This document shows positions 19,213 to 34,958 of a stretch of 64,000 nt of DNA, in pieces. Position 1 is the stretch's first letter, and each line of letters opens with the position of its first letter. The DNA is from Escherichia coli (GTDB lineage Bacteria > Pseudomonadota > Gammaproteobacteria > Enterobacterales > Enterobacteriaceae). A program made the position numbers and the translations under genes. The stretch lies in the NCBI RefSeq assembly GCF_041248615.1, contig NZ_CP158426.1; one strand, written 5' to 3'. The notes beneath the pieces were generated by a model, which made no database searches, had not been told where the DNA came from, and saw only the letters and a program-made list of their open reading frames with translations.

Positions 19213-20037
19213 TTATCGCATTATGCCCATGAAGCCATGTACGCCCATATACACACCAACTAAGCCAATCAACAGACTGGAAAAATAGGGGGCGCGTTTA
19301 GCGAGAGTGTTAAATCCGCTCCAGCGTTTTGCGACCTGCTGAACGCTGATTGCTGCGCCAACGCCTACGGTGACCAGCGTTAACGCCAGGCCAATGCTGA
19401 AACTGACGACCAGTGTTGCGCCCAGTGTCAGGGCTTTCAACTGAATGCAAATCAACAGCACGGTAATTGCTGCCGGGCAGGGGATAAGGCCACCGGTTAA
19501 GCCAAATAACAAAATTTGCCAGTTGGTGACCTCTCTACCATCAAAGCGTCGTTTAATGTCATTGGCATGGGCTCGTGCATGGGCATCCTGATACTCGCCA
19601 TGTTCGTGATGGTGATGATGTCCATGGTCGTGGTGATCTTCGTGATCGTGGTGATGATGCTCATGATCATGCTCGTGCATATTCTCCAGCCAGTTTCGTT
19701 CGCCGCGCCAGGTACGCCAGAACATCCAGAACGCGGTGCCAATAATGATCACTGCGGAAATCAACTGGAGCCACGGTTCTGCTGATTGAGCAGTAAAGCG
19801 CTTGCTGATCACCATCCCGCCAAAGGCAATCAACCAGACCACTGCGGTATGCGAAATGGTTGCTGCCAGTCCGAGCATCACCGCCTGTTTAATGGTGCCT
19901 TTGATGGCGATGATAAACGCCGCCATCATCGTTTTTGAGTGCCCTGGTTCCAGGCCATGAAGCGCACCAAGTAAGATGGCGCTGGGGATGAAGAACCAGG
20001 CGTTTCCTTGCTGAAGAAGAGTTGTAAATTCGGTCAT
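19213..20037 (-). CDS. rcnA: Ni/Co efflux membrane protein RcnA
   Basis: Polytopic membrane ORF with the long His/Asp/Glu-rich loop (HEHDHEHHHHDHEDHHDHGHHHHHEHGE). Confidence 0.95.
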   Translation of the reverse strand: MTEFTTLLQQGNAWFFIPSAILLGALHGLEPGHSKTMMAAFIIAIKGTIKQAVMLGLAATISHTAVVWLIAFGGMVISKRFTAQSAEPWLQLISAVIIIGTAFWMFWRTWRGERNWLENMHEHDHEHHHHDHEDHHDHGHHHHHEHGEYQDAHARAHANDIKRRFDGREVTNWQILLFGLTGGLIPCPAAITVLLICIQLKALTLGATLVVSFSIGLALTLVTVGVGAAISVQQVAKRWSGFNTLAKRAPYFSSLLIGLVGVYMGVHGFMGIMR

Positions 20038-20074
20038 GATAATAATTCTTAGTATTAATTCGGCAATCTGATTC

Positions 20075-20109
20075 TACTCCCCCCCAGTACCTGATACTAC
20101 CCCCCAGTA
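20075..20109. promoter_or_regulatory. Two RcnR operator sites (TACT-G/C-run-AGTA) in the rcnA-rcnR divergent region
   Basis: tactcccccccagta (20075-20089) and tactaccccccagta (20095-20109) seen in sequence; match the described RcnR operator architecture. Confidence 0.75.
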
Positions 20110-20157
20110 GATTAATAGTGCTATGATTTTTCATATTCTTATTAACCAGGTGTTGCC

Positions 20158-20430
20158 ATGTCTCATACCATCCGTGATAAACAGAAACTGAAAGCGCGTG
20201 CCAGTAAGATTCAGGGCCAGGTCGTGGCGCTCAAGAAAATGCTCGACGAGCCGCACGAATGCGCTGCAGTTTTACAACAGATTGCTGCTATCCGTGGCGC
20301 GGTAAACGGTCTGATGCGGGAAGTGATTAAAGGTCATCTGACGGAACACATCGTTCACCAGGGGGATGAGCTAAAACGTGAAGAAGATCTGGATGTCGTT
20401 CTGAAGGTGCTGGATTCTTATATCAAATAA
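20158..20430 (+). CDS. rcnR: Ni/Co-responsive repressor RcnR (CsoR/RcnR family)
   Basis: 90-aa [71 protein letters not shown]. Confidence 0.95.
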
Positions 20431-20519
20431 TTTATTAACGCTATTGTAAAACTGCCGTTTTTCCTCGTTTACAACGCGTGCGCTGGACATTACCATCCTC
20501 CTCTGCGATTTATCATCGC

Positions 20520-20599
20520 AACCAAACGACTCGGGGTGCCCTTCTGCGTGAAGGCTGAGAAATACCCGTATCACCTGATCTGGATAATGCCAGCGTAGG
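20520..20599 (+). repeat. Left 80-bp direct repeat (attL-like); copy of the thiM TPP-riboswitch aptamer sequence
   Basis: aaccaaacgactcggggtgcccttctgcgtgaaggctgagaaatacccgtatcacctgatctggataatgccagcgtagg is identical base for base to 33185-33264. Confidence 0.9.
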
Positions 20600-20654
20600 T
20601 TGCCAACATTCTGATTAGTATTCATGTGGTTACATTTCTTTTTGTCCGTGTGTA

Positions 20655-21986
20655 ATGCACCTAATGTACAAAAAGAGCGTAAACATGAGGTACAAAACTC
20701 TTCCATACACGTTTCAAAGAAACGGTAATTACTATCTACAGATTCGGCTTTCGAATGGTCGGATGTATAAAAAATCACTTCTCACTGACAGCTATCGTGA
20801 AGTCTCTGCTTTGATGATTGGTGTTGCTCCGTACATTCCTTTTGTTAAATCATTAGCCATCACAATCCCGATGTTTGATGCCTTTGTTTCAAACCTGATT
20901 ATGTCAAAACTTAGGGCTGTAAAAGTTCCGCTGCTATCACATCAGTCGGTAATTACCCCTGCTACATTCGAGGAACCAGCGACACAAGCCGAACCGCAAA
21001 ACATGCTAACTCTTTCTGATGCGTGGGCTATGTATAAAGCGGAAAAGGGTAAAACATGGACAAAGTCGATCTCAAGGGCGAATGAGCGTTACATGGAAGT
21101 CTTGATGGTTGTCTTGGGAGAGACAACTGACGTAGTTGCGATTTCTAAGCAGGACATCAAGCAGGTGATGGAAGTTGTTGAGAATTTGCCTAAGCGTGTT
21201 GTCCAACCGTATCGCTCAATGAACATCCAGCAACTGATTGAATGTGATGATGTATCACCGAATGAGTTAGTAGGAGTGGAAGCCATTCATAAGCATCTCA
21301 AAATCTACAAATCGCTTTTCAAGACTTTTCTAACAGAAAACAAAGATATTTTGATTAAATCCCCAACTGATGGGGTAGTAGCAGCACCATCTAAAGCAAG
21401 GTTTGGAGCATACAGTTCGGCGGAGATGAAGAAGTTTGTAGAGTGGGCACTTAAGCAGCCAGATGGCTGGCAGAAGTGGATAACATTGTTGTTGGCATAC
21501 ACAGGAGCCAGAAGGGGAGAAATTGCCAAACTGGAAAAATCACAAATAAAATATGATGAGGATAGCCATCGGTATTATTTCCTGATTGCAGAAGGAGGGC
21601 AGGGGAAAACCGAAAATGCTACCCGACAAGTAGTGATACACCCTAAGTTGATCGAATGGGGTTTCATGGAATACGTTGATCGCCAGTGGAAAGAACGGAT
21701 TTTTTCAGAAGTGGCTGGTACAAACATGACGAAGATCGGTAAAGAATTTGCTGATGTGCGTGACCAGCTTGACATTCCGTACTTAGACGATTTTGGACAG
21801 CGGAGGCTTTTGCATAGCATTCGTCATTCTGTTTGCTCTACTGCGATGGCTGGATGGGTAAAGAACATCTTGCATCTGCAACAAACAGTAGGCCATGAGA
21901 AAAGTGGAGGGATCACTAAACGCTACTTACATACGTTCCCACTATCATCAATTTGTTATGTTATTGATGGGATTAGTTGGGTCTGA
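20655..21986 (+). CDS. Tyrosine-type site-specific integrase (island integrase); start may be at MRYKTLPY (20685)
   Basis: C-terminal catalytic signature: AYTGARRGE (box I Arg), HSIRHSV (H-x-x-R), ITKRYLH (Tyr nucleophile). Sits directly next to the left repeat. Confidence 0.85.
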   Translation: MHLMYKKSVNMRYKTLPYTFQRNGNYYLQIRLSNGRMYKKSLLTDSYREVSALMIGVAPYIPFVKSLAITIPMFDAFVSNLIMSKLRAVKVPLLSHQSVITPATFEEPATQAEPQNMLTLSDAWAMYKAEKGKTWTKSISRANERYMEVLMVVLGETTDVVAISKQDIKQVMEVVENLPKRVVQPYRSMNIQQLIECDDVSPNELVGVEAIHKHLKIYKSLFKTFLTENKDILIKSPTDGVVAAPSKARFGAYSSAEMKKFVEWALKQPDGWQKWITLLLAYTGARRGEIAKLEKSQIKYDEDSHRYYFLIAEGGQGKTENATRQVVIHPKLIEWGFMEYVDRQWKERIFSEVAGTNMTKIGKEFADVRDQLDIPYLDDFGQRRLLHSIRHSVCSTAMAGWVKNILHLQQTVGHEKSGGITKRYLHTFPLSSICYVIDGISWV

Positions 21987-22203
21987 AACTGCTAAGAATG
22001 ATAGGAAAAGCTACTTAATGATCCTTAGTTTTGGATGAAATTGAAGATTACAAAGATCTTGAGCGAATAAGAGCGTTTTTTAATCAAAAAAGCCATAAAA
22101 ACTTTTCTTGACTGTATATTAACACAGTGCTTCTACTATGTAGAAGAAATCGACATGAAAAATTTGATATGGTAAATTTTATCCATGATAACAAAAAGGT
22201 ATT

Positions 22204-23106
22204 GTGGATATGTTACTACCAATACGAGTTCATAAACGATTTCTAACTTTATTTAAGACTTTGCAAATTGACGATTGCCCACCGCAATCAACTTTAAATA
22301 TTCATGTACTTAATATCGAAAGCAATGAATTTATATACTGTAAATTAGTTGAAGAATTACGTGACATAATAATTACTTATGTACATTCGAATAGAAGGCT
22401 TGAGGAGTTTAAGGAAAGTTATCCTTCGTATAGCCCTAAACCTTTTTTCGAAGCAATACAAAAATTTCGCAATTATACGTCAAACGAAGGTGAGTTAGGT
22501 GAACTGCTTTTATACGCTTTTCTTGAAACAGGACTAAATGCTCCGAAATTACTTTCCAAAATGCAATTGAAAACAGATTCTAATGATTACATTAAGGGTT
22601 CTGATGGTGTACATCTGTTAGAATTAGATGATGGTTATCAATTAATATTTGGAGAATCAAAGCTCTATGCCGATCTTTTAGAAGGTGCTCGAGAAGCGTT
22701 TGATTCTATTTTAGATTTTAAAAGTAATGGAATGGCATTTGAAAGAGGGCTGATAGATACACACGTTATAAATGAAATGGTTTCAGAAGAAGGTTATGAG
22801 AAAATAAAATCAATTCTTCTTCCTTCTTCTGGCGATGATGGGCCAGATCTTGATTTATCCTTTGGTATATTTCTTGGTTTTGAATTGAAAATAGATAGCT
22901 CACAGTTATCATTGAAAAACAAAGAGTTTAGAGATTGGGTTAATGAGTCCGTGAAACAACATGCTACTCGCGTGGTCAGTACGATACGAAGGAAAATTAT
23001 TAATCATAAATTATATGGTCACGAATTCCACATATATATAGTTCCTTTTACCGATATTGATGTTACACGAAAAAAATTAATTCATGAAATGCTAACAATT
23101 AAGTGA
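22204..23106 (+). CDS. PD-(D/E)xK nuclease-like protein, HamA (DUF1837)-like candidate; start GTG 22204 or ATG 22210
   Basis: Motifs in the order expected for the restriction-endonuclease fold: acidic helix EGELGELLLYAFLE, then SDGVHLLELDDG, then LIFGESKLY (E-x-K). AT-rich; stop overlaps the start of the next gene. Confidence 0.55.
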   Translation: MDMLLPIRVHKRFLTLFKTLQIDDCPPQSTLNIHVLNIESNEFIYCKLVEELRDIIITYVHSNRRLEEFKESYPSYSPKPFFEAIQKFRNYTSNEGELGELLLYAFLETGLNAPKLLSKMQLKTDSNDYIKGSDGVHLLELDDGYQLIFGESKLYADLLEGAREAFDSILDFKSNGMAFERGLIDTHVINEMVSEEGYEKIKSILLPSSGDDGPDLDLSFGIFLGFELKIDSSQLSLKNKEFRDWVNESVKQHATRVVSTIRRKIINHKLYGHEFHIYIVPFTDIDVTRKKLIHEMLTIK

Positions 23107-25691
23107 ACACTATGAATGAATTAAATTCAAGTAAAAACATTCATTTGGCAGCTCGTCTTGCAGATGATGCTTTTGAAAGTGCTTATTTTAAAGAAATCAA
23201 TAAGTTTATAAGTGGTTTATACAATTACAGTTTATTTAACTGCGATTCAGATGTTAGTCTCTCCGAGAGTGATAACAATAAAATAGCACACGCTTTGCGT
23301 TTTGCAGATATATTTTCACATTCTTCAAAAGAAAATCATAGATCATGTGCATTTGAAATTATAAGTAGAATAGCCTTATTAAAAAAACATGATCCTTATT
23401 TTAAATTTATAGGTACTGCTGTTATTAATCGGCTTGGGGTTTATGCAGCAGAAAAACTCATATCAAAAGGGGTAAAATTACCCTTAGATAGAGAAGTTGA
23501 TTCTATTATTAAAAAATCAGTTCAGAAAACAGATGAAGATGGAGTATATTTCACTGATAAACAACATGAGTTATACAAACTTTTAAAAAGTAGCAAAACA
23601 ATTAGTTTTGCTGGTCCCACTTCGATGGGAAAGTCATTTGTTATTAATGCATACATTAAGGAAATAACTCTTAAAAAAGAGCTTAAAAATATAGCTTTAA
23701 TTGTTCCTACACGGGCTTTAATAAGCCAAAATGCACTTAAGTTAAAAATTGATATTGCATTGTATAAGAATGAAAGCCCTTATAAAGTTGTTACGACATC
23801 CTACATTATTAATGGTGATGAAAGTAAAAATAAAGGCTATATTTTTATTCTCACCCCAGAAAGGCTGGTTAGTCTCATAAGCACTATTCCTGGACTAATG
23901 ATTGATTATGTTTTTGTAGATGAAGCTCAAAAGTTAACAACAAAAAATGATTCGAGGAGTCTTGTTACTTATTCAGCTATAGAGCAAACAATTAGTAAAA
24001 ATCCTGAGGCAAGATTATTCTTCTCTTCACCTAATTTATCTAATCCTGAAATATTTAATATTTTGTTTGATAGAAAAGACGCTTCGGTATATAGAAATAC
24101 AGAAGGTGCAACTACTCAGAATATGTATTTTATTGATCTTTTAAATAGCAGCTTTAGCTATGTTAATACCGAGAAAAGGACGCTTGAAAAAATAGATGAG
24201 ATCTCTAATACTTACACGAATACAAATGATGTTATCTATAAATTAAATAATGGTAAAAGTAAAATAATTTATTGTGGGGGGATAGAAAGCACGCTTGAGA
24301 GAACACGTAGCTTTATCAATTATCTCAAAATTAATAAGAAAAAAAGAAAGCATTTAAATTTAGAAATATCTTCTGAGATAAGAAACTTTGTTCATGATAA
24401 CTATGAACTTGCAGAAGCCATCAACTATGGTGTTGCTTTCCACTTTGGAAACTTGCCTCAATCGATTCGAGATTTAATTGAGCATCATTTCAAAATAGGA
24501 AATATTGACTATCTATTCTGTACATCAACCCTACTTGAGGGAGTCAATTTACCTGCAAGATCCGTATTTATTCTTACGCATAAAAAAGGCCCCAGTCCAT
24601 TAGAGTCGGTTGATTTTTGGAATCTGGCTGGGAGAGCTGGGCGATTATCTATGGAATTGTCAGGGGATATTTTTTGTATTAGGGATGATAATAAGCTTTG
24701 GAATAAAAAAGCTGTTGATAATATCCTTCTGTCTGACAAAAATAACATTTCATTAAAGCCAAGCTTCTATATTGAAGACGAAAAAAGATTGAACGATTTA
24801 CACCATATAATTACGACTGGTAAAACAGGGAATATTAAAAATGCTGAGTTCCTTAGAACTTTAGGAGATATGATAAGAATAGACACTCTGAGGGATTCTA
24901 AAGAACTTCCTCTTATTAGTTATTTCCAAAGCAGTGGAAAATCAGAAATTTTGTTAAGTGCAGAAAAAAGCACTGAAAATATTACCATGCCAATGAATAT
25001 CCTTTTGGCAAATAGTCATATTGCGATTGATTCGCAGTATCATGCTTTTAAAAAAATAAAAAGCCTTACAGTTAAGGAACTGAAATTATCATGGCAGCCT
25101 ACATACGAAGAAATTAAAGAAAAATTGAATTTGATATTCGATATTTACCAAGTTGAAAAGTTTGCAACAGGTAGAGAACGTCTTTATTTAAATTCAATTC
25201 CATATTATGCAGTATTACTGTTTCAATGGATTCGTGGAAATAGTCTACAGGAAATTATCTCGGGGGCAATTGCTTATAGAAAGAACAAAAGTATATATAT
25301 TAAAAATACACCTGTTCTTTTTGACAGCGAAAACCCAGCTCATTTAACTGCATTAGTTAATGAAACTATAAAAGACATTGAGTTGCGTGTAGGTTACCAG
25401 TTACAAAATTATTTTTCACATTACTGTCAGCTTCTGAATTATGTGTTACAAGGAAATCCAGGGGCAAACTGGTCTCAGTTCATTGAGTTTGGCTCTAATG
25501 AGCCAATAGTATGGCACCTACAAATGATGGGCTTTTCAAGGGATAGTGCAGTTTTTCTCAAGAAGAATTTTTCAAAACATCTTAAACTTGATAATGAAAT
25601 GAATAAACTCATCATAATGGATAAGGAACTGATCAAGCGTTCTTTCAAAAAAGATGGACTACATTACTTAGAAATCCAATCGTTATTATAA
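23103..25691 (+). CDS. Superfamily-2 helicase (DEAQ box), HamB-like candidate
   Basis: Walker A/motif I FAGPTSMGKSFV, motif II VFVDEAQKL, motif VI-like NLAGRAGRL; about 170-aa N-terminal extension before the helicase core; GTGA start/stop overlap with the upstream gene. Confidence 0.6.
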   Translation: MNTMNELNSSKNIHLAARLADDAFESAYFKEINKFISGLYNYSLFNCDSDVSLSESDNNKIAHALRFADIFSHSSKENHRSCAFEIISRIALLKKHDPYFKFIGTAVINRLGVYAAEKLISKGVKLPLDREVDSIIKKSVQKTDEDGVYFTDKQHELYKLLKSSKTISFAGPTSMGKSFVINAYIKEITLKKELKNIALIVPTRALISQNALKLKIDIALYKNESPYKVVTTSYIINGDESKNKGYIFILTPERLVSLISTIPGLMIDYVFVDEAQKLTTKNDSRSLVTYSAIEQTISKNPEARLFFSSPNLSNPEIFNILFDRKDASVYRNTEGATTQNMYFIDLLNSSFSYVNTEKRTLEKIDEISNTYTNTNDVIYKLNNGKSKIIYCGGIESTLERTRSFINYLKINKKKRKHLNLEISSEIRNFVHDNYELAEAINYGVAFHFGNLPQSIRDLIEHHFKIGNIDYLFCTSTLLEGVNLPARSVFILTHKKGPSPLESVDFWNLAGRAGRLSMELSGDIFCIRDDNKLWNKKAVDNILLSDKNNISLKPSFYIEDEKRLNDLHHIITTGKTGNIKNAEFLRTLGDMIRIDTLRDSKELPLISYFQSSGKSEILLSAEKSTENITMPMNILLANSHIAIDSQYHAFKKIKSLTVKELKLSWQPTYEEIKEKLNLIFDIYQVEKFATGRERLYLNSIPYYAVLLFQWIRGNSLQEIISGAIAYRKNKSIYIKNTPVLFDSENPAHLTALVNETIKDIELRVGYQLQNYFSHYCQLLNYVLQGNPGANWSQFIEFGSNEPIVWHLQMMGFSRDSAVFLKKNFSKHLKLDNEMNKLIIMDKELIKRSFKKDGLHYLEIQSLL

Positions 25692-25697
25692 AACTGC

Positions 25698-25728
25698 CGA
25701 ATCAGAGTCTTTTATTGATTCTGATTCG
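25698..25728 (+). terminator. Hairpin immediately after the helicase gene (weak terminator candidate)
   Basis: CGAATCAGA-(13 nt)-TCTGATTCG; no strong T-tract, so confidence is low. Confidence 0.3.
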
Positions 25729-25999
25729 CACTTATATAGTTAAATCAAAAGGAGCATTAAAATTTTTCAGTAGCGATTTAGTATGCTAAATCGCTGCATA
25801 ACGAATCTGCTTCTAAATCTTGATTAAGTGTTTCGAACTGCCTTGATTGTTTATTGCTACACTTTATAATTAATCGCAACACACAAAACAATACAATGTA
25901 GGCAGTTGCACAGAATTAATTACAGGCACATTATGGATATCGAGAGGATTCGAACAGTTTTAAACTGCAAGCCCTTTGACTTTATCCCCTCCTACTATA

Positions 26000-26575
26000 T
26001 CAGCGTTTGATGCCGCTAATACTGGCAAGCATTTCTTTCTTCACACGAAAAACTGTAGCCCTGCCGCAATCACATAACTTTGCTATCTCGTCTGGTGTAT
26101 TCTTCCCGGCCTGTAACATATCGATAATCTTGTTATGTAGCTCTTTGTTCTTTTGCTTGCCCTTGTACTTCTTAGCCTCTTTAGCAAGAGCAATCCCCTC
26201 ATTGCGACGAGATGCGATCATACCCCGCTCAAATTCTGCAGCGGCTCCCATCATGGTTAGGATAAGGCGTGATTGTGGGGAATTATCAAAACTCATAGAG
26301 TTTGCAAGGAATTGAACAGTGATTCCACGAGCCACGAGGTTATCAATCATTTCCAGCAAATCGCGGGTATTACGTGCAAGGCGATCAATCGAGTGAGTAA
26401 CGAGCGTGTCACCTTCGCGGAGGTGTGAAAGCAGGTTCAACAATTCAGGTCTTTCGCTGGTGGACTTACCTGATTCTTTCTCTGCCACAATTTTGTCACA
26501 AACAGGTTCCAGCACTGCCAACTGACGCTCAAGATTTTGATCCTTTGTTGAGACTCTCGCGTAACCAAAAATCAT
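26000..26575 (-). CDS. Serine recombinase (resolvase/invertase family)
   Basis: N-terminus MIFGYARVSTKDQNLERQ (catalytic Ser in YARVST context), C-terminal HTH-like tail; 191 aa. Confidence 0.85.
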   Translation of the reverse strand: MIFGYARVSTKDQNLERQLAVLEPVCDKIVAEKESGKSTSERPELLNLLSHLREGDTLVTHSIDRLARNTRDLLEMIDNLVARGITVQFLANSMSFDNSPQSRLILTMMGAAAEFERGMIASRRNEGIALAKEAKKYKGKQKNKELHNKIIDMLQAGKNTPDEIAKLCDCGRATVFRVKKEMLASISGIKR

Positions 26576-26600
26576 TTTCCTGCCCTCACTTACGTGAAAA

Positions 26601-26662
26601 GTATCATTTGAATTTACTTAATGATACAGTATCATTTAAATGCATTCAACATCTAAATGATA
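26601..26662. promoter_or_regulatory. Cluster of three dyad-symmetric elements upstream of the serine recombinase gene (res-like site)
   Basis: GTATCATT-11 nt-AATGATAC; TGATAC-A-GTATCA; ATCATTTAAATG...CATCTAAATGAT. Position immediately 5' of the resolvase start is typical of res sites. Confidence 0.45.
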
Positions 26663-27081
26663 CTAAACGAGACGAGAAAAGCGAGTATCGTTAGGGAGTA
26701 CCCAAAAGAGATTTTTGATCGTGCGTTTTTTAGTCAATGTAGGGTTAGTGAAAAGTTCAGTACCGAGATCTGAGTTCACGGCATTTTGTCGACGGGGTTG
26801 AACCTGATTAGGCGAACGAGATTTTAAATCAGGCGGAATAAAACAAGTTGTACTTTTATCTGAGTAAAAGATCCCTTTAACTTTTTAGTCAGAAATCGTG
26901 ATACTAGGGGTTTGGTTATTTTGTGTCCTTAAGGCCAGTACTTTTAGCGAGGACGAAAAAACGGCCTACATGAGAACGCTTACAGTAACTTAAGTATATT
27001 ATCCAAAAAGTCACTTAACTTAAATCAATTTGGATGCAAAATCGCCACACTTTGCAAGTGAACACATACCGGGCAACAAGC

Positions 27082-27109
27082 AAATAAAAAAGGCCACTTT
27101 CGCGACCTT
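27082..27109 (-). terminator. Rho-independent terminator after the 119-aa gene
   Basis: Minus-strand RNA: AAGGUCGC-GAAA-GUGGCCUU (GNRA tetraloop) followed by UUUUUAUUUG. Confidence 0.65.
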
Positions 27110-27125
27110 GTACCAGTACAAACAC

Positions 27126-27485
27126 TCATTCAGAACGATCAAGTACCATATATGCTGGCTGACACATGCTGCCCCGCTCCTGTAGCCAGTAGTAATCAAG
27201 ATCGGCAACACGCACGTCCAATCCAGAATCTACACGGTTGATCTGTAACCGTAGCCCTACAGTATCCTTGTACGATAAACCAGATTTAACATTGTATTTG
27301 TACTTAACACCGTTTTCCTGTTCAAACTGTTTAAGGAAAGGCGTCATTTGTTTCTGAATTTCTTTCAAACAAATAACCTCATTATCAATAGCAAAGGGGG
27401 GTTCTGTTTTTCCATCAGGTACAGCAGCCTGTAAATGAAAGGAAGTACTCAACAATAACAGCATTGCAACAGAAGTCTTTTTCAT
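27126..27485 (-). CDS. Small secreted/periplasmic protein of unknown function
   Basis: Sec-type signal peptide MKKTSVAMLLLLSTSFHLQA; 43 bp downstream of the membrane-protein gene, same strand. Confidence 0.6.
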   Translation of the reverse strand: MKKTSVAMLLLLSTSFHLQAAVPDGKTEPPFAIDNEVICLKEIQKQMTPFLKQFEQENGVKYKYNVKSGLSYKDTVGLRLQINRVDSGLDVRVADLDYYWLQERGSMCQPAYMVLDRSE

Positions 27486-27528
27486 TTTAATTCCTTATTA
27501 AAGAACAGTACATTATATTTCAATGGAC

Positions 27529-28569
27529 TTAATAACAATATTTTATATTTCCTTCGGGTTTTCTCATGCATTTAATTCCTTCAGGAATATAATCAGTTAC
27601 GGGAGCAGGTCTGGCATCAGGTCTTGAAAGACGATTGGATATAGAAGACAACAGACTGAAAACACACTCATTAAATGATTTTTGATATTTATTTTTTTCA
27701 TAAAAGTACTGCATGGTGATTTTATCTCTTTCGTATTGCAATTCTTTGCCAAGCTGAATCCTATCCATATCAATTCCATTTCTCATAGCATTAAATCTTT
27801 CGTTCAATAAATTAAATTGAGATTTATTCCATTCATTTAAAGGAAATAAAGAATTGTTAAGCCTTTGCCTACAATTAGATTGCTCGATAGCTGACATGTA
27901 TTCTTTCATACTAACGCCAATATCTAAGTATGTGAGTTGTCCAGCAGTTCTATCAACTGAGTTATTAGGGTAAGATTTAATTTCAGTAAGTATTGACTCT
28001 GTTAATACTGCATTTTCTTCTAAATCTTTGCTAATAGTTATTTGAGCTTGTTCTCTTTTATCCTTATCAAATATTGAAATGTATTTCTTTACTATATCCT
28101 GATTAGCTTTCTCGGCTGCTACTAACGCATCTTGAACCTTCTTTTCCGCCGCTTTAACTCGTTGTTCTTCTACAAATTTCGCGTAGTCATCAGTATTTGT
28201 AATGTGATTTTCACGAGCGATAGAAAACTCTTTACTATCTTTAAAACCAAGTTTTTGTGCTCTGGCTCCATCGCTTGAAGATCGGGCAGAACTTGCCACG
28301 AAAGCGAGCACAATGATCAGTACAGGAACCGTATAATTATTAACGAGTTTATAGGGTAAGAACTTCGCTTTAAGCGTACCATAACCCAAAACAGCCCAGC
28401 CTATCGCGGCAGTACTTGCCAGTAGCTGGCACAATCCAGCGACGGAAAGCATGATTACCGACCAGAAGCCTGTACCGACTGCGAAAAGATCACCAAATTT
28501 CTCCATTGACGCAAGGAATAAAAACACTCCCCAAATGCCATAAAATCCTATTTTCAAATATTTACTCAC
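27529..28569 (-). CDS. Inner-membrane protein (3-4 N-terminal TM helices) with coiled-coil-rich soluble C-terminal domain; function unknown
   Basis: Hydrophobic segments in the first ~100 aa; charged helical region (EEQRVKAAEKKVQDALVAAEKANQDIVKK); AT-rich codon usage. Confidence 0.6.
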   Translation of the reverse strand: MSKYLKIGFYGIWGVFLFLASMEKFGDLFAVGTGFWSVIMLSVAGLCQLLASTAAIGWAVLGYGTLKAKFLPYKLVNNYTVPVLIIVLAFVASSARSSSDGARAQKLGFKDSKEFSIARENHITNTDDYAKFVEEQRVKAAEKKVQDALVAAEKANQDIVKKYISIFDKDKREQAQITISKDLEENAVLTESILTEIKSYPNNSVDRTAGQLTYLDIGVSMKEYMSAIEQSNCRQRLNNSLFPLNEWNKSQFNLLNERFNAMRNGIDMDRIQLGKELQYERDKITMQYFYEKNKYQKSFNECVFSLLSSISNRLSRPDARPAPVTDYIPEGIKCMRKPEGNIKYCY

Positions 28570-28779
28570 CGCAATTATCCTTTAATAATTTTCCAAATCG
28601 ATGGTTCGTTCTATTTGTATTATCGACAATAATTCGTTTGCCTTTAGGTAGATCCCTTAAAAAGGAATCCCCCCAAAATTTATAGATTAGCAGTTGTACC
28701 ACTCTCACTGTTTTGTCACTCCCATTATCTTCTCTCAGGTCAAAAGTACGGACTTAAAGCCGTCCGTGTTCAGGTGCTC

Positions 28780-28900
28780 AAGAGTAGCACGCATATCAAT
28801 AAATGATCGATAAAAACGATCAATTAATGGCTTATTGATCGCTATAACCTATCAATGACTATTAATTCAATACAAATCAATAGGTAAAATCGATCAAGAG
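28780..28900. repeat. ATCAAT/GATC-rich iteron-like cluster in an ORF-poor region
   Basis: About six ATCAAT (or complement) motifs in both orientations and several GATC sites within ~120 bp; further GATC pair at 29096-29103. Confidence 0.4.
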
Positions 28901-29552
28901 GATTCGTCATCCATGAAAGGGGTTATGTATCTGATTTCAATACAGGGAGTATTAGCGATACCATCACGCAAACGCTCTTAAAGCGTAGCTACGGCGTTTT
29001 GTAGGGTTTTTGGTCATTCATGTGTGTCAGTAATGAACATCGCATTCAGGGGCTTCCTGTGCGTTTTGTCCGAAACACCATCATGAAGGGGGACAGATCG
29101 GATCGGGGTCGCTTCGCTCTGGTCAGTACTGGATAGTTCTTTTCCAGTAACTGAAACCGCAGATACCCCACTAAGTACACAAAGGAATTATTTGTAGAAT
29201 AAGTAATGAAATAACAGTCAGTTATGTACTTACTGACAGAACTAAAAACGCGATTAGGTTCGCTCTGTCAGTGACCGAAGGGAACGCAACAGTAGAATCT
29301 AATCCAGCGAACAGTACACGCAAGCGGGTGCTGTTTAATTGTTTTATCTATGTAAACAATGGGATAGCTATCAAGTACTCACTGCGTGAGCACTCTCACT
29401 AACTACCCGAAACAGTTCGCTTGCTTCGCCGCTCCTACTTTCAGGTAGTTAATTCGCTTTCGCTCGTTGTGATGTCCGAAATTTATTACCTATAGTATTA
29501 TAAGGTATTATTTTCCGGACATTTATGTATTTTTATGATGGTGTTCTGGACA

Positions 29553-31028
29553 TCATTTTTTGCTTTTTTGTACTTCCTTTTCGTATTTGTTCCACATAGC
29601 CTTTTGCTCTTCGGGACTGAGTGCTGTATTACCACTGGCAAGAAACACCTTGAACGCTTCTAACTCAAGCCCTGGGTTGCGGCTTTTCCAGCGGCGAAAA
29701 CGCTTAGCGTGATTATCATCAAGAGTGAAACGCTTTTGCTTATTCTTTGAACCTTGCGGCCTGCCTCTCGACCTCTGCTCATCATCAATACCGATATCTA
29801 TATACTCAATATTATCTGTAAGAGATCTGGCTTGCCATTCATCAAAAACATAAACAGTCTGTGTTTCAGTACTGTCAAAATCCCTTGAAATTCCTCGTAG
29901 TACGAACTGGTGTAAACTTTCGTACTCCCTCGCAACATGTATCGCCTCGCCGTCAATCTCAAAGAACAATTCGCACTGTTTAGCCTCTGTTTCAGAGGGA
30001 CGCATACAAGCGAGCCAGACGCACGTGAGCAAGTGTTGGTACTGGTTAAACCCTCTGGCATCCGGGCTTATCTCTGTGCCGTTTTTGAGGCTCTGAGAAT
30101 CGCTTTTGTTCTTCGTCCAGTAGAAATCCTGTCCCTCAAGTTTTTTATCAATAAATGAGTATATTTTTTGTACTTTATCAGGGTTATTAGTCTTCCATGT
30201 CTTCGATAGTTTTTGATTTTTTGAGAAGTAATAAACCTTTAATCTGTCTTTGAGAGCTGTTTTTCGTGTCAGTAATCCTCCAAGTTCAGTACTTTCAAAG
30301 AGTTCTTTATTGCCTTTATAGATCAATGAATTTTCGAAATTAGCTCCGAGAAAGGTGATTGATACGTCTTTGTACTTACTGAGATCTTTCCATGCGGTAA
30401 TATTAAGCTGTTCCTTTTTCGCATCGGTAAAGTACTCATTATTCATGATGAACATATCATTTTCGTTAATTGCTGGTAGCTGGTTCAAAATATTCTTCAG
30501 TACTTCCCCTTGTATTTCTGGTTTTCTTTCTGCCGCAATATACATATTTTTATCATCTAATGTCAGTACATTGTGTATTAATGAATTAAGAATTGTATTT
30601 TTTATATTAGTATCACCCTCATTAATATTCTGAAAAGAGTGAAAATTAGTAACGTCGTCAATATAAATATTACAGTCAGATAACAATTCAGGAGGAATTT
30701 TGAAAAACGTTTTATCTGTTATGAGTAATGTTTTATTACTTCCAGATGAAAGAAAGTTAATAACTGAATTAATAACACTTTCATCTTTTGGTACTGTATC
30801 TGTAATTATATACTCGCAATTATTGATTTGCTTTGCTGTCTGCTTAATAAGTTCTTGAGTGTTCTGTACTAAAATATATTTTTCAGTACTGTTATTGATT
30901 ATATTGCATATAGCAGTAGTTTTACCTGAACCACAAGGGGCGGAGACATACTTAAATTTATTATAAATAGGTGTGGGATTAATCATTTGTACACGCTCCA
31001 TATTGATTAATGTAGAAAGGTCAGCCAT
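29553..31028 (-). CDS. P-loop NTPase with basic C-terminal tail containing an AT-hook-like RGRP motif; function unknown
   Basis: N-terminal Walker A SAPCGSGKTT, Walker B-like NIYIDDV; C-terminus RSRGRPQGSKNKQKRF. Confidence 0.6.
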   Translation of the reverse strand: MADLSTLINMERVQMINPTPIYNKFKYVSAPCGSGKTTAICNIINNSTEKYILVQNTQELIKQTAKQINNCEYIITDTVPKDESVINSVINFLSSGSNKTLLITDKTFFKIPPELLSDCNIYIDDVTNFHSFQNINEGDTNIKNTILNSLIHNVLTLDDKNMYIAAERKPEIQGEVLKNILNQLPAINENDMFIMNNEYFTDAKKEQLNITAWKDLSKYKDVSITFLGANFENSLIYKGNKELFESTELGGLLTRKTALKDRLKVYYFSKNQKLSKTWKTNNPDKVQKIYSFIDKKLEGQDFYWTKNKSDSQSLKNGTEISPDARGFNQYQHLLTCVWLACMRPSETEAKQCELFFEIDGEAIHVAREYESLHQFVLRGISRDFDSTETQTVYVFDEWQARSLTDNIEYIDIGIDDEQRSRGRPQGSKNKQKRFTLDDNHAKRFRRWKSRNPGLELEAFKVFLASGNTALSPEEQKAMWNKYEKEVQKSKK

Positions 31029-31370
31029 TCCAGTGTCTGGCCTTTCGTTGTTTTAGTTATTAGTCTTTTTGAGTTGCGACAACTGCAAGAGAATGTTTAT
31101 AAACAAGTGAAATAAGCAGTTTTACCGCCTCAAAAGCTACAGTCAGTTTCGTAATTATTTTCGAAAGCATCGTAAATTTCACTTCGCTATCTTCTATGCA
31201 AAAATTAGCAGCCTGAGGTATTTAATGATTGAGATGTGGCCTGTTGATAAGAGGGTTTGTATTGCTTGTTCTGCTCTTTGTTAATTTGTGACTTATTCCT
31301 TTCACAATGATCGGCTATGTTTGATAACTCTGTTAGGAAATCACCTATGGCTACCATATTGGATTTGCCC

Positions 31371-32276
31371 CTATATTTCCAGACACCTGTTATCACTTAA
31401 CCCATTACTGGCCTGCTGCCGCAGATATTCCCGTGGCGAGCGATAACCCAGTGCACTATGCGGATGCCATTCGTTATAATGCTCGAACGCCTCTGCAAGG
31501 TTCTTTGCTGCCGTTAACCCGTCTGGTTTAGGCATGATACTGATGTAGTCACGCTTTATCGTTTTCACGAAGCTCTCTGCTATGCCGTTACTCTCCGGAC
31601 TCCGCACCGCCGTGTTCTTCGGTTCAAGCCCCAATATCCGGGCAAACTGCCGTGTTTCATTAGCCCGGTAGCATGAACCATTATCCGTCAGCCACTCTAC
31701 TGGAGACGCCGGAAGCTCGTTGCCGAAGCGGCGTTCCACCGCTCCCAGCATGACGTCCTGTACTGTTTCACTGTCGAAGCCGCCCGTAGTGACTGCCCAG
31801 TGCAGTGCCTCACGGTCACAGCAGTCCAGCGCGAACGTGACTCGCAGTTTTTCTCCGTTATCACAGCGGAACTCGAACCCGTCAGAGCACCATCGTTGAT
31901 TGCTTTCTTTCACGGCCACTTTGCCAGTATGTGCCCGTTTCGATGGCGGTACAGCGGTTTTTCGCTCAAGCAACAGCGCATTCTGGCGCATGATCCGGTA
32001 AACACGTTTGGCATTGATCGCAGGCGTACCATCAAGTTCGGCCTGTCTGCGAAGCAGCGCCCATACCCGACGATAACCATACGTGGGCAGCTCTCCGATA
32101 ACATGGTGTATACGGAGAAGCACATCCGTATCATCTGAGTGACGGCTGCGGCGACCATCTTTCCAGTCATCGGTTCGTCTGAGAATTACGTGCAACTGCG
32201 CACGCGACACCCGGAGACAACGGCTGACTAAGCTTACTCCCCATCCCCGGGCAATAAGGGCGCGTGCGCTATCCAC
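31371..32276 (-). CDS. insD: IS2 transposase OrfB (InsD), DDE domain
   Basis: 301-aa ORF recognised as IS2 InsD; overlaps insC in the -1 frame as expected for an orfAB frameshift fusion. Confidence 0.9.
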
Positions 32277-32599
32277 TTTTTTGCACGCCCGTATTCAACG
32301 GCTTCTTTAAGGAGTTCATTTTCCATCGTTTTTTTGCCGAGCAGGCGCTGGAGTTCTTTAATCTGCTTCATGGCAGCAGCAAGTTCAGAGGCAGGAACGA
32401 CCTGCTCTCCTGCGGCCACAGCAGTAAGACTTCCCTCCTGGTATTGCTTGCGCCAGAGAAATAACTGGCTGGCTGCCACACCGTGTTGCCGGGCAACAAG
32501 GGAGACCTTCATTCCCGGTTCAAAACTCTGCTGAACAATAGCGATCTTTTCCTGTGTAGTACGCCGTCTGCGTTTCTCCGGTCCTAAGACATCAATCAT
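32234..32599 (-). CDS. insC: IS2 OrfA (InsC), HTH protein
   Basis: [56 protein letters not shown]...; start taken at MIDVL (ORF track begins 45 nt upstream). Confidence 0.9.
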
Positions 32600-33184
32600 C
32601 TGCTCTCCAATGACTAGTCTAAAAACTAGTATTAAGACTATCACTTATTTAAGTGATATTGGTTGTCTGGAGATTCATGGGGCCAGTCTACATATAATCA
32701 TGTTCATCTTCTAATTCTTTAAATTTTAATAGAGAAATCTCTTCATAATATTCTTTCATTTTCATATAAATCACCTTTTATTTTTTTGTTGTTAACACAG
32801 GTTTTTTTCTGCACTACACATTATAGCACATAGAATTAATTCGTTTCATTTTCTGTCAATGAAATAGAGTAAAGATAAATGCTTTTATAAAGCACTTATC
32901 ACATCCGTTGCCTTGCTATATATAAAAAGTTCTCCAAACTATACTGGTGTATATTTTCCCCATCAGATACAGTTGTTTTTAAACATTACAATGTTGGATT
33001 CTTGGTTCCAAATAAATCGAGCAACTATTAGTGTTTCAAAATGAAGTTGGGAGCTATTCCTTAATTCGTATGAGGTACAAAATGGGGTACTCGGTGGGGT
33101 ACAGCGTGTATAAGTGACGTCACCACGGGTAAACTTGCATCGGCGAGCAACTTAACCTAAGCTGACAAAAATTAAGAGAAATGT

Positions 33185-33317
33185 AACCAAACGACTCGGG
33201 GTGCCCTTCTGCGTGAAGGCTGAGAAATACCCGTATCACCTGATCTGGATAATGCCAGCGTAGGGAAGTCACGGACCACCAGGTCATTGCTTCTTCACGT
33301 TATGGCAGGAGCAAACT
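33185..33317 (+). promoter_or_regulatory. thiM TPP riboswitch (thi-box aptamer plus expression platform); its first 80 bp are also the right direct repeat (attR-like) of the island
   Basis: Sequence ...cgactcggggtgcccttctgcgtgaaggctgagaaatacccgtatcacctgatctggataatgccagcgtagggaagtcacggaccaccaggtcattgcttcttcacgttatggcaggagcaaactATG matches the recalled E. coli thiM riboswitch. Confidence 0.9.
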
Positions 33318-34106
33318 ATGCAAGTCGACCTGCTGAGTTCCGCGCAATCTGCGCACGCGTTACACCTTTTTCACCAACATTCCCCTCTTGTGCACTGCAT
33401 GACCAACGATGTGGTGCAAACCTTTACTGCCAATACCTTGCTGGCGCTCGGTGCATCGCCAGCGATGGTTATCGAAACCGAAGAGGCCAGTCAGTTTGCG
33501 GCTATCGCCAGTGCGTTGCTGATTAACGTTGGCACGCTGACGCAGCCACGCGCACAGGCGATGCGTGCCGCCGTTGAACAGGCAAAACGCTCTCAAACAC
33601 CCTGGATGCTTGATCCAGTAGCGGTGGGTGCACTCGATTATCGCCGCCGTTTTTGTCTGGAACTTCTGTCTCATAAGCCAACCGCCATACGTGGTAATGC
33701 TTCGGAAATCATGGCATTAGCTGGCGTTGCTAATGGTGGACGGGGAGTGGATACCACTGACGCCGCAGCTAACGCGATACCCGCTGCACAAACACTGGCA
33801 CGGGAAACTGGCGCAATCGTCGTGGTCACTGGCGAGATGGATTATGTTACCGATGGACATCGTATCATTGGTATTCACGGTGGCGATCCGTTAATGACCA
33901 AAGTGGTAGGAACTGGCTGTGCATTATCGGCGGTTGTCGCTGCCTGTTGTGCGTTACCAGGCGATACGCTGGAAAATGTCGCATCTGCCTGTCACTGGAT
34001 GAAACAAGCCGGAGAACGCGCAGTCGCCAGTAGCGAGGGGCCAGGCAGTTTTGTTCCACATTTCCTTGATGCGCTCTGGCAATTGACGCCGGAGGTGCAG
34101 GCATGA
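33318..34106 (+). CDS. thiM: Hydroxyethylthiazole kinase
   Basis: 262-aa [36 protein letters not shown]...; 4-bp overlap with thiD. Confidence 0.95.
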
Positions 34107-34903
34107 AACGAATTAACGCTCTGACGATTGCCGGTACTGATCCGAGTGGTGGTGCGGGGATTCAGGCCGATCTTAAAACCTTCTCGGCACTTGGCGCTTA
34201 TGGTTGCTCAGTGATTACTGCACTGGTGGCGCAAAATACCCGTGGCGTACAGTCGGTGTATCGCATTGAGCCTGATTTTGTCGCCGCCCAGCTCGATTCG
34301 GTGTTCAGCGATGTGCGAATCGATACCACTAAAATCGGTATGTTGGCGGAAACCGATATTGTTGAAGCGGTGGCAGAACGGTTGCAACGTTATCAGATCC
34401 AAAACGTGGTACTCGACACCGTTATGCTGGCAAAAAGCGGCGACCCGCTGCTTTCACCTTCGGCGGTTGCTACGCTGCGCAGTCGATTATTGCCACAGGT
34501 TTCATTAATAACGCCAAACTTGCCCGAAGCTGCTGCCTTGCTCGACGCGCCACACGCGCGCACCGAACAGGAAATGCTGGAACAAGGGCGATCGCTGTTG
34601 GCGATGGGCTGTGGCGCAGTGCTAATGAAAGGTGGTCATCTGGATGATGAGCAAAGCCCGGACTGGCTGTTTACTCGCGAGGGAGAACAACGGTTTACCG
34701 CACCGCGCATTATGACCAAAAACACCCACGGCACTGGTTGTACGCTCTCTGCGGCGTTGGCTGCACTACGCCCGCGCCATACAAACTGGGCTGACACCGT
34801 ACAGGAGGCAAAAAGCTGGCTTTCATCGGCGTTAGCCCAGGCCGACACGCTGGAAGTTGGTCACGGTATTGGTCCGGTTCACCACTTCCACGCCTGGTGG
34901 TGA
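34103..34903 (+). CDS. thiD: Hydroxymethylpyrimidine/phosphomethylpyrimidine kinase
   Basis: 266-aa [37 protein letters not shown]... Confidence 0.95.
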
Positions 34904-34958
34904 GCACCGTACTATAGCTGCTTTGGTTATTGTCAGCCTTTGGCACTGACATTCAGGG

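Follow-up and report, generated by a model that had tools for sequence, protein, structure and literature searches.

The 12.7-kb, AT-rich island between rcnR and thiM in this Escherichia coli strain is most probably (about 85%) a site-specific integrative island, for whose tyrosine integrase the aptamer of the thiM TPP riboswitch serves as the chromosomal attachment site. The island is one member of a widespread family and not a singular event. Its features are listed in Table 1.

Direct repeat and empty site

The window, i.e., the whole 64,000-nucleotide stretch of DNA analysed, contains an exact 80-bp direct repeat (100% identity by repeat search), the copies of which are spaced 12,665 bp apart. 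An exact 80-mer repeated within 64 kb cannot have arisen by chance. The bases bordering the copies differ, with C/T on the 5' side and T/G on the 3' side. The GC content between the repeats is 0.29-0.46 (0.55 in the IS element) versus 0.45-0.55 in the flanks, and no tRNA or tmRNA gene was found in 18000-36000. The Rfam TPP model (RF00059, gathering score 54.3) matches both copies. The original prediction of a perfect thi-box repeat bracketing an AT-rich interior, with an integrase by the left repeat, a recombinase, an IS element and cargo genes, was thus borne out in all these respects. For gene naming, the PGAP annotation of NZ_LT599825.1 was used, a record 100% identical to the stretch.

Table 1 Features of the island and its flanks (positions in the window)
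Feature	Position	Strand	Basis
rcnR, left chromosomal flank	20158..20430	+	PGAP of NZ_LT599825.1; ORF list
Candidate native thiM promoter, TTTACA-17-TACCAT	20468..20496	+	Consensus match only
attL repeat copy, host-derived 5' part of thiM TPP aptamer (P1 5' strand to P4-P5)	20520..20599	+	
Probable crossover/core interval at attL, P4-P5 hairpin CCTGATCTGGATAATGCCAGCGTAG	20574..20598	+	attL/attR polymorphisms
P' arm and int leader	20600..20684	+	Alignment of int-upstream regions; inverted-repeat search
Tyrosine integrase (int), 433 aa	20685..21986	+	Pfam PF00589; PHROG integrase
HamA, type I Hachiman	22210-23106	+	PADLOC HamA1, E=2.4e-120
HamB helicase, type I Hachiman	23112-25691	+	PADLOC HamB1, E=8.2e-296
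Small serine recombinase (DNA-invertase/resolvase type)	26000..26575	-	PHROG 125 DNA invertase, E=5e-58; NCBIfam Mpi/XisF-like
Backbone module	27126..31028	-	ORF list; PGAP
IS3-family insertion sequence	31360..32690	-	PGAP IS3 family transposase
Island right end (P arm)	32691..33184	+	Alignment of right ends, 8 islands: blocks invariant
attR repeat copy, island-supplied aptamer 5' part	33185..33264	+	Repeat search; allele comparison
Rebuilt thiM TPP riboswitch	33187..33317	+	Rfam, full model 1-105
thiM	33318-34106	+	ORF list; PGAP
thiD	34103-34903	+	ORF list; PGAP

Of 5426 complete E. coli genomes, 4728 have the reconstructed empty site uninterrupted: rcnR lies next to thiM, with one aptamer between them. 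The median genome of this set has one copy of the aptamer sequence. E. coli therefore neither carries two copies as a rule nor usually keeps rcnR and thiM 12 kb apart. The site is occupied or scarred in ~13% of the complete genomes, and an island-derived leader stands at thiM in at least 554 of the 5426, O157:H7 among them.

Origin of the two aptamer copies

The left copy is host-derived, and the 5' block of the right copy is borne by the island. The perfection of the repeat in the window depends on host and island having the same allele in this strain. The same island in A37, 99.87% identical to that of the window in flanks that are 96.4% and 97.4% identical, has a repeat identity of 78/80. 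The attL of A37 carries its own P3-loop allele together with flank SNPs, and its attR carries the island allele; the attR copy is the same in both strains despite 3-4% flank divergence. The host allele in the left copy and the island allele in the right copy were also found in EC96 and several other genera. Foreign P3 stems occur in the attR of EC96, L010, L015, L022, L026 and L029, the EC96 type standing at thiM in 116 E. coli genomes and the native type in 5290. These alleles show directly that the island supplies an aptamer copy from which the riboswitch is rebuilt, as had been proposed, and that thiM lies behind a chimeric riboswitch.

Given these origins, the crossover probably falls within the P4-P5 hairpin, an imperfect dyad around the P5 loop (P4/P5 pairing taken from the Rfam alignment). 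Polymorphisms bound this interval. The rightmost attL/attR differences of L022 and L026 lie just 5' of CCTGATC, and in L015 the two copies differ inside the P5 loop. The identity block is shorter at its 5' side in other island lineages, and its 3' limit invariably falls 0 to 4 bases after GCGTAG (>35 loci, integrases 36-100% identical).

The integrase and its relatives

The integrase has all its catalytic residues (R276, K308, H377, R380, H404, Y414), which are invariant in the integrase alignment. Its match to PF00589 is weak (E=8.7e-7), and its profile matched none of the solved structures at E<=0.01. The integrase clade spans at least 16 genera of Enterobacterales. Related E. coli sequences (72-100% at the nucleotide level) are all chromosomal, none being on a plasmid, and a probe of rcnR-attL-int found this order contiguous in 191 E. 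coli genomes.

The link between integrase and aptamer is constant. In all 25 species-representative loci with an intact int start, from at least 16 genera, int directly follows a TPP aptamer 5' part of the thiM type, with the block's final GCCAGCGTAG lying 68-90 bp before the ATG. The junction was always at this sequence in the clade members examined. The aptamer part is likewise present in 5/5 distant relatives (36-53% identity); the arrangement is shared by relatives at 53, 41, 40 and 36% identity and by a 546-aa form. At the far end, thiM with a complete riboswitch was found in all 10 loci whose right flank is visible, and each of the seven divergent E. coli islands inspected is bordered on both sides by riboswitch copies. 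Every intact relative examined thus adjoins a TPP aptamer 5' fragment, which strongly supports the original prediction that the riboswitch leader is the attachment site. A sister integrase clade (33-37% identity) abuts rnpB.

Island ends and thiMD transcription

At the left end, the sole sigma-70-like match in 20380-20760 is the candidate native thiM promoter, which remains there, upstream of int. The attL aptamer part is severed from the P1 3' strand, the expression platform and thiM. Island DNA replaces the P1 3' strand in this copy (20522-20617, 58.0 bits), and 3/5 P1 pairs are flagged as non-canonical. The P' arm and int leader comprise an inverted-repeat arm (20622-20642), a conserved block CTTTTTGTC...GTAATGCAC, and a degenerate and a consensus GGTACA repeat (20667-20672, 20689-20694) which straddle the int start. 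These blocks are kept across genera.

At the right end, the rebuilt aptamer (33187-33283) is complete at 71.2 bits. It consists of the island 5' block and the host P1 3' strand, and the host expression platform follows up to the thiM ATG; in this strain, the result is identical to the empty-site sequence. The attR copies score 71-78 bits, at least as high as native aptamers, and in TB06052 a rebuilt riboswitch was the target of a second integration. The P arm contains three GGTACA-type repeats (33072-33103), an inverted core-like copy (33149-33167) and an inverted-repeat arm (33174-33194) extending 10 bp into the attR repeat.

The island parts the thiMD operon from its native promoter. Since the native promoter region stays behind at attL, thiMD transcription would have to be supplied by the island, presumably from its right end. 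A hairpin and a candidate outward promoter, TTGCAT-17-TAAGCT, lie at 33135-33163, the latter matching only 6 of 12 consensus positions. A strict sigma-70 scan of the right end returned no promoter on the + strand (outward), so a right-end promoter is put forward tentatively.

Cargo and backbone

The cargo is a type I Hachiman anti-phage system. In relatives, the slot beside int holds TIR+NACHT, SIR2 or GmrSD. The small serine recombinase belongs to the backbone and occurs in every island variant seen. The backbone module, in which PADLOC found no match, encodes 119-aa and 346-aa proteins and a ResIII/DEAD-like protein (29553-30986, PGAP), and includes a ~1-kb ORF-free stretch with iteron-like repeats (28806-28897). 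Strain 94-3024 has the same module in an island inserted elsewhere, at ppdD. The IS3 element is a secondary insertion splitting a 74-aa ORF of the island. It is missing from seven islands otherwise 99.5-99.9% identical, and its breakpoints map to L002 13368-13372, within ORF 13218-13442.

Proposed mechanism

In the attP, the island's own leader would be joined to a duplicate of the aptamer's first 70-80 nt (P1 5' strand, P2, P3, P4-P5). Strand exchange would take place within the P4-P5 hairpin, a natural dyad; in parallel, tRNA-targeting integrases use anticodon or T stem-loops. Two products would result. The attL product would comprise the host promoter, the host aptamer 5' part and int, and the attR product the island end, the island aptamer 5' part, and the host P1 3' strand, expression platform and thiMD. 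On the thiM side, the outcome would be a complete chimeric riboswitch, presumably still responsive to TPP. The island would replace the target unit at its 5' end, the promoter included, mirroring the logic of tRNA integration, where the 3' end is replaced; thiMD would then be transcribed from the island right end. The anti-phage slot beside int is swappable, being filled by Hachiman here.

Alternative explanations

Could the island have entered by RecA-dependent homologous recombination through the 80-bp aptamer, or with a larger imported chromosomal segment, the integrase being a passenger and the riboswitch no dedicated attachment site? An identity of 80 bp is long for the core of a tyrosine recombinase and could support homologous exchange, and the 5' limit of identity varies among lineages. 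The 3' limit, however, is fixed at more than 35 loci, always with int beside it, and the junction is unchanged in the EC96 type, where identity covers only ~45 bp. In A37, flank divergence begins within 6 bp to the left and 77 bp to the right of the repeat, so no flanking DNA was co-imported. The sister clade also has a different, equally precise RNA-gene target. This route is very improbable. A function for the aptamer fragment beside int is somewhat less improbable, though still doubtful. Together with the island's inverted repeats, the fragment might act as a regulatory RNA tying int expression to TPP or to the integration state (attP versus attL leader). Indeed, int always follows the promoter-proximal fragment at 68-90 nt, and attL copies still exceed the Rfam threshold. 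In reconstructed attP RNAs, an inverted-repeat helix of 14-25 bp closes the fragment (z = -2.8, -2.5), and by inspection its 3' arm CTCTTTTTGT has an alternative pairing partner, ACAAAAAGRG, in the int ribosome-binding region. The same features are nevertheless expected of DNA-level arm or accessory sites of attP, and the blocks are too conserved for informative covariation. Moreover, the fragment lacks the native P1 3' strand and expression platform, and some attL lineages gain changes at conserved positions (the P5 loop in L015; ACCC -> ATCC in L016).

With a size of 8-13 kb and int at one end, the island may also be a PICI-like or cf-PICI-like satellite that a helper phage induces and packages, with the riboswitch as its att site and defence genes as cargo as in P4-like elements. 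Relatives of types a and b encode a replication-initiator-like HTH protein, and the window island has its iteron-like, ORF-free stretch beside a helicase-like gene. Nonetheless, the capsid, packaging, AlpA and primase hallmarks are all lacking in the window island, and a set of 50,697 phage records contains no member of the integrase family. The family occurs in a single IMG/VR contig, a provirus call in which a subfamily-b island adjoins a head-portal-HNH-terminase module, and the packaging genes there lie outside the island attL. Satellite status is therefore unlikely. Somewhat more credible, but still the lesser possibility, is that the window copy was inserted by its integrase and is now an immobilised relic unable to excise. 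The absence of the island elsewhere would then reflect non-acquisition or RecA-mediated deletion between the 80-bp repeats, not ongoing excision. The IS3 insertion in a small ORF near the right end suggests that this copy may be immobile, and no excisionase was recognised in the island. No attP junction or excised circle was found with two patterns in viral contigs and one in metagenomes, and complete genomes yielded a tandem junction only. Remnants without int, such as that of O157:H7, are frequent, with the island right end at thiM in at least 554 genomes and int in ~191. Against this, int is full length with an intact active site, both att copies are perfect, and seven other genomes carry a near-identical, IS-free version. 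As at least one of these, A37, has a clearly different chromosomal background at the locus, the IS-free island has spread recently; present-day excision and a route of transfer from cell to cell are presumed. The relic reading bears on present activity only and is compatible with site-specific integration at the riboswitch.

Comparison with known systems

Sublocation rules for tyrosine integrases at tRNA and tmRNA genes were reportedly set out by K. Williams in 2002. Like the islands and prophages at such genes, the thiM island has int beside one att site, direct repeats that represent the identity block of attP and attB, a probable crossover in a dyad-symmetric stem-loop of a structured RNA, and tandem accretion and decayed remnants at the site. 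In both, the identity block covers the stretch between the crossover and the end of the functional RNA, and the target is thereby rebuilt from island DNA. The target of the thiM island, however, is a cis-regulatory mRNA leader instead of a stable RNA gene. Since it is the 5' part that the island replaces and not the 3' part, the promoter is displaced as well, and transcription of the downstream operon would have to come from the island.

No published description of a thiM-riboswitch island family was found. Integration of a mobile element inside a riboswitch has been reported for a prophage in a preQ1 riboswitch of Enterococcus cecorum, predicted to alter downstream gene expression (bioRxiv 10.1101/2022.10.18.512807). 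That report mentions a single prophage in passing and describes no riboswitch rebuilding, dedicated integrase clade or cross-genus conservation. Such integration, which the original prediction called unusual, is thus rare but not unprecedented. In enterobacteria and firmicutes, other site-specific insertions into non-tRNA RNA genes include those of Felsduovirus at rybB, which is E. coli hotspot 29 and where the phages have variable defence cargo (PMC10121019), and of phiEf11 at ffs (PMC12540744). These are full prophages in genes for trans-acting RNAs, whereas the thiM island is small, has no virion genes and occupies a cis-acting metabolite sensor.

With the defence-island hotspots of E. coli, the thiM island shares a preferred integration position and interchangeable defence cargo. 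A supplementary table of Hochhauser et al. 2023 has one "rcnR-thiM" entry, an island with a type IV restriction gene. The table does not count it as a hotspot and gives its mobile-element type as "None"; it is outside the 41 hotspots, and the riboswitch target is not mentioned (PMC10121019). A parallel within the integrases themselves is the rnpB sister clade (P0136/L043, P0141/L042). These proteins are 33-37% identical, have the same GGTACAA repeats before the start codon, and lie against a structured RNA gene, that of RNase P RNA, at its 3' end. They differ from the thiM clade in their DUF6538 N-terminal region and in having no riboswitch nearby.

The island in the window belongs to a widespread, previously uncharacterized family of small defense-carrying islands. 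The evidence supports the view that the integrases of this family target the thiM TPP riboswitch, rebuild it with an island-borne 5' half and displace the host promoter.

The repeats and the two riboswitch copies

Repeat search and direct reading established that the 80 bp at 20520-20599 (attL, the left copy) recur exactly at 33185-33264 (attR, the right copy), 12,665 bp from start to start. Both copies match the TPP riboswitch family (Rfam RF00059) above its gathering score of 54.3, and the DNA between them, the IS3-family element excepted, has a GC content of 29-46% compared with about 45-55% outside. The original prediction that the repeat is the thiM aptamer and bounds an AT-rich island is borne out by these data. 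No tRNA or tmRNA was found by ARAGORN in 18000-36000, the target being RF00059 and not a tRNA/tmRNA gene.

For the right copy (33187-33283), the match covers the full model (positions 1-105) at 71.2 bits with P1 closed, and thiM comes next. The left copy (20522-20617) reaches 58.0 bits, but the 3' strand of P1 is replaced by island sequence. Of its five P1 pairs, three are marked non-canonical, and it lies upstream of the integrase gene int, so that it is not a complete TPP riboswitch; it also lacks an expression platform for a thiamine gene. The window matches E. coli NRZ14408 (NZ_LT599825.1) at 100% identity, and in that record the NCBI annotation calls both copies "TPP riboswitch". PGAP applies the same label to the truncated attL fragment before int here and at the corresponding place in every island-bearing genome. 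Since the fragment has neither the P1 3' strand nor the expression platform, the label on attL fragments is a systematic annotation artifact.

The empty site and its occupation in E. coli

The empty chromosomal site was reconstructed by joining 20200-20599 to 33265-33664. Among 5426 complete E. coli genomes, 4728 have this sequence uninterrupted, annotated as rcnR-riboswitch-thiM. A single aptamer, with rcnR adjoining thiM, is therefore the usual state, and K-12 too has the site empty. As the proposed insertion implies, two copies are not present throughout E. coli, and a 12-kb spacing is not the norm.

Sequences related to int (about 72-100% identity) are present in 221 E. coli genomes, always on the chromosome, and rcnR, the repeat and int are contiguous in 191. 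Each of the seven divergent E. coli islands inspected is bounded by riboswitch copies on both sides, and the slot after int differs in content (TIR+NACHT, HNH/AIPR, SIR2 with HigB/ImmA, GmrSD and others). An island-type right end is fused to the thiM riboswitch in at least 554 of the 5426 genomes, many of which hold integrase-less remnants of about 2.3 kb, O157:H7 included. The O157:H7 remnant (locus L004, 17731-20100) lies between rcnR and thiM; its left aptamer copy is lost, and the right end and the rebuilt riboswitch are still upstream of thiM.

The rebuilt riboswitch is, judging from the gene order at three loci, still usable as a target. In strain TB06052 (L036, 11906-23418), a complete second island with an AAA-ATPase as cargo lies between an O157-type remnant and thiM, in the order remnant, aptamer copy, second island. 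In loci L033 and L039, an island right end is found directly upstream of the attL of another island, forming tandem junctions.

Origin of the two copies and position of the crossover

The island of strain A37 is 99.87% identical to that of the window (14 differences in 10.8 kb), and its 12-kb flanks are 96.4% and 97.4% identical. The flanks begin to diverge 6 bp outside the left repeat and 77 bp outside the right one. The left copy of A37 has its own P3-loop allele, TTTGT, and the right copy has the window allele, TGCGT. Likewise, EC96-type islands, also represented by MRE162, combine a native left copy with a right copy whose leader differs and whose P3 stem (CCCCATCAATGATGGG) is foreign. The chimeric aptamer with the foreign P3 stem is present at thiM in 116 E. 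coli genomes, compared with 5290 for the native type. The pattern of a host allele on the left and an island allele on the right also appears in Enterobacter, Lelliottia, Citrobacter and Pantoea loci. These alleles show that the left copy is host DNA and that the 5' block of the right copy moves with the island. Together with the full right copy, the A37 and EC96 alleles directly bear out the earlier proposal that the island supplies the aptamer copy which rebuilds the riboswitch at the thiM end.

A crossover at the 5' edge of the repeat, which would make attL island-derived, was also considered; it is ruled out because the attL copies carry host alleles. The rightmost differences between attL and attR (loci L022 and L026) lie just 5' of CCTGATC, and the identity invariably stops at GCGTAG or up to 4 bases beyond it. 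For these two reasons, the crossover is placed, on the aligned sequences, within the 25-bp P4-P5 hairpin (20574-20598 and 33239-33263). This hairpin is an imperfect dyad around the P5 loop, with the pairing taken from the Rfam alignment, and subfamily b islands add a further inverted copy, GGATAATGCCAG-CGTAGTC-CTGGCGATTATCC. Integration junctions formed by the integrase would be expected within CCTGATCTGGATAATGCCAGCGTAG. In Lelliottia sp. (locus L015), the P5 loop reads GGGGAT in the left copy (9846-9914) versus ATAAT in the right copy (16327-16395). The difference is either a host allele, with the crossover then 3' of the loop, or decay of a disused fragment.

Gene content of the island

The presence of a tyrosine integrase by the left repeat, of recombinases, of an IS element and of cargo genes had been predicted; all are found, and the cargo can be specified as Hachiman.

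Features of the island in the window
Feature	Coordinates	Strand	Remarks
Tyrosine integrase (int)	20685-21986	+	PF00589; starts 86 bp past the left repeat
HamA, type I Hachiman	22210-23106	+	PADLOC HamA1, E=2.4e-120
HamB helicase, type I Hachiman	23112-25691	+	PADLOC HamB1, E=8.2e-296
Small invertase-type serine recombinase	26000-26575	-	
119-aa and 346-aa proteins and ResIII/DEAD-like protein	27126-31028	-	First two: function unassigned
IS3-family element	31360-32690	-	
Island right end, 494 bp	32691-33184		

The adjacent and co-oriented hamA and hamB genes (HamA with DUF1837, HamB a helicase) constitute a predicted type I Hachiman defense system, and nothing else was detected on the island by PADLOC. 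A match to CRISPR-DR61 at 25393-25430 (E=0.99) is below threshold and was rejected as a chance match within hamB. The same island is found without the IS in seven other genomes at 99.5-99.9% identity, for which reason the IS is interpreted as a later insertion. Isolate 362, KE55 and A37 are examples of IS-free strains. The element interrupts a 74-aa ORF of the island, for which no family match was found. The alternative right-end gene of type-a islands matches only "HTH_73".

The backbone at 26000-31028 recurs at 97% identity in E. coli 94-3024 (locus L045, 8989-13956). There it is part of an island which splits ppdD and ends in a 520-aa large serine recombinase. The two islands have the backbone in common, but their integrases and att sites differ. 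Within this region of the window, an ORF-free stretch of about 1 kb (28570-29552) next to the helicase-like gene is kept in relatives. It contains three iteron-like 18-mers (ATCGATAAAAACGATCAA, 28806-28897) and several inverted repeats, and may be a replication origin.

The integrase family and its target

Close integrase homologs (81-96% identity) come from Klebsiella, Enterobacter, Citrobacter, Leclercia, Pantoea, Erwinia, Serratia and others. A scan with one genome per species yielded 27 loci, 25 with an intact int start. In all 25, the aptamer block ...CTCGGGGTGCC...GCCAGCGTAG precedes the ATG by 68-90 bp, and many of these copies are also above the Rfam threshold. At the far end, a complete TPP riboswitch followed by thiM is present in 10/10 loci reaching that far. 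In the upstream flank, rcnR is encoded only at Escherichia-type loci. Its absence from the other flanks indicates that the riboswitch, and not the neighborhood, defines the site.

Cluster representatives with 53, 41, 40 or 36% identity have int and aptamer in the same arrangement, which is also kept by a 546-aa form of the integrase with a different N-terminus. In all, the linkage holds in 5/5 distant relatives. Whether relatives of the integrase sit beside thi-box sequences, a question raised with the original prediction, is thus answered affirmatively by the species loci and the distant relatives alike. The catalytic residues R276, K308, H377, R380, H404 and Y414 of the window integrase are invariant in the family alignment (A1). 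The integrase profile had no match among solved structures at E≤0.01.

Two integrases of 33-37% identity lie instead next to RNase P RNA (334 bits in Rfam), at its 3' end. They look like a sister clade targeting rnpB and, because of them, riboswitch specificity seems to have evolved in a lineage whose targets are structured RNA genes. Both (L043, 3585-5269; L042, 1-1383) have a DUF6538 N-terminal region and start about 70 bp past the rnpB 3' end, and GGTACAA repeats before the ATG are common to them and the int studied here. As a separate observation, a 6.5-kb contig labeled "MAG: Flavobacterium psychrophilum" (L009, QFQM01000240.1) carries an enterobacterial-type attL and an 83% identical integrase; this contig is probably mis-binned.

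Transcription of thiMD and possible control of int

The sole promoter-like site upstream of the native aptamer (20468-20496) stays at the left end of the island, where it now precedes the aptamer fragment and int. The thiMD genes are 12.7 kb away from it, with oppositely oriented genes in between. De novo thiamine synthesis requires ThiD. Because of the displaced promoter, the intervening opposite-strand genes and the requirement for ThiD, we infer that thiMD transcription must start in the right end of the island. In the alignments, the right end is strongly conserved across genera and comprises three GGTACA-type repeats, which are likely arm-type sites, a hairpin and an inverted core copy. 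A strict sigma-70 scan returned no outward promoter in the right end, and the sequence TTGCAT-17-TAAGCT at 33135-33163 is a conserved candidate only. Remnants without an integrase, such as that of O157:H7, retain the right end, which fits with a required function. The inverted att-core copy (33149-33167; right-end alignments A2 and A3) overlaps the candidate promoter. It reads AACTTCCCCTAAGCTGGCA in type a, a near reverse complement of TGCCAGCGTAGGGAAGT, and GACTTCCCGCTGGCATTATCC in subfamily b.

A further possibility is that the island splits the riboswitch and re-uses it as a regulator, so that int expression is tied to the integration state and possibly to thiamine, with thiMD relying on a promoter from the island. 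In the excised state, the island promoter, the aptamer half and inverted repeats would form a TPP-aptamer-like leader before int. In the integrated form, int would lie behind the host thiM promoter and an aptamer devoid of P1. Long imperfect inverted repeats (33174-33194 and 20622-20642) do flank the aptamer block in the reconstructed attP, the site of the excised island. According to computed pairing, they would, as RNA, close the aptamer fragment with a 14-25-bp helix, and inspection of the conserved blocks suggests that the 3' arm could alternatively pair with the ribosome-binding region of int. Accessory sites acting at the DNA level would have the same appearance, and covariation is uninformative since the blocks are nearly invariant. 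Control of int by the split riboswitch is considered improbable, though of interest.

Mobility

The features of a site-specific island are present, with an R-K-H-R-H/W-Y integrase at one end and repeats that correspond to a single copy at the empty site. With 99.87% identity between islands on chromosomes that match at 96-97% in the flanks, the same lineage is found at the same target in different backgrounds. Searches for attP gave no matches in IMG/VR contigs with type-a and window-type patterns, nor in JGI metagenome contigs with the type-a pattern. In complete E. coli genomes, a synthetic attP matched one junction only, a tandem array. Phage and plasmid collections yielded no member of the integrase family, only remote matches (≤44% identity over partial length); one "plasmid" record among them is really a chromosome. 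The family occurs in a single IMG/VR contig. No PHROG match to the hallmarks of P4-like, PICI or cf-PICI phage satellites (AlpA-type regulator, primase/replicase, capsid-remodeling/packaging) was found in the window island; type-a and type-b relatives encode a replication-initiator-like protein.

In locus L046 (2867-10000; IMG/VR UViG 2531839180_000003), only the final 42 bp of the aptamer block stand in front of a subfamily-b integrase, and a module of major-head, portal, HNH and large-terminase genes lies upstream of this remnant. The locus represents either a cf-PICI-like satellite in tandem at the same site or a rearrangement.

Significance and comparison with known systems

Riboswitch aptamers join the structured RNAs used by integrases as landing sites, and the present case is no one-off. 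Across at least 16 enterobacterial genera, integrases diverged to 36% identity share one target. A biosynthetic operon has its promoter replaced, and metabolite feedback would be preserved via a hybrid aptamer. As the element replaces the 5' end of the operon and so its promoter, thiMD expression would depend on mobile-element DNA in at least 10% of sequenced E. coli, O157:H7 included. In about 2% of sequenced E. coli, the aptamer is a natural chimera in which the P3 stem is foreign. Moreover, the integrase and its hairpin target of about 25 bp could serve as a compact tool for site-specific integration.

A survey of E. coli defense hotspots contains one "rcnR-thiM" island in a supplementary table, with the hotspot flag "No", no mobile-element type and no mention of the riboswitch (PMC10121019). 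The rcnR-thiM interval is a defense-cargo hotspot outside the 41 of that survey. In the literature searched, whose coverage is incomplete, no published description of the thiM TPP riboswitch as an att site was found, and an earlier one may exist. The original prediction regarded a riboswitch as an unusual target. This holds in that the site is neither tRNA nor tmRNA and has little precedent, but it is not unique, as a preprint reports a prophage in the preQ1 riboswitch of Enterococcus cecorum (bioRxiv 10.1101/2022.10.18.512807). In contrast to tRNA islands, of which they are the mirror image, the thiM islands replace the 5' end of their target together with its promoter.
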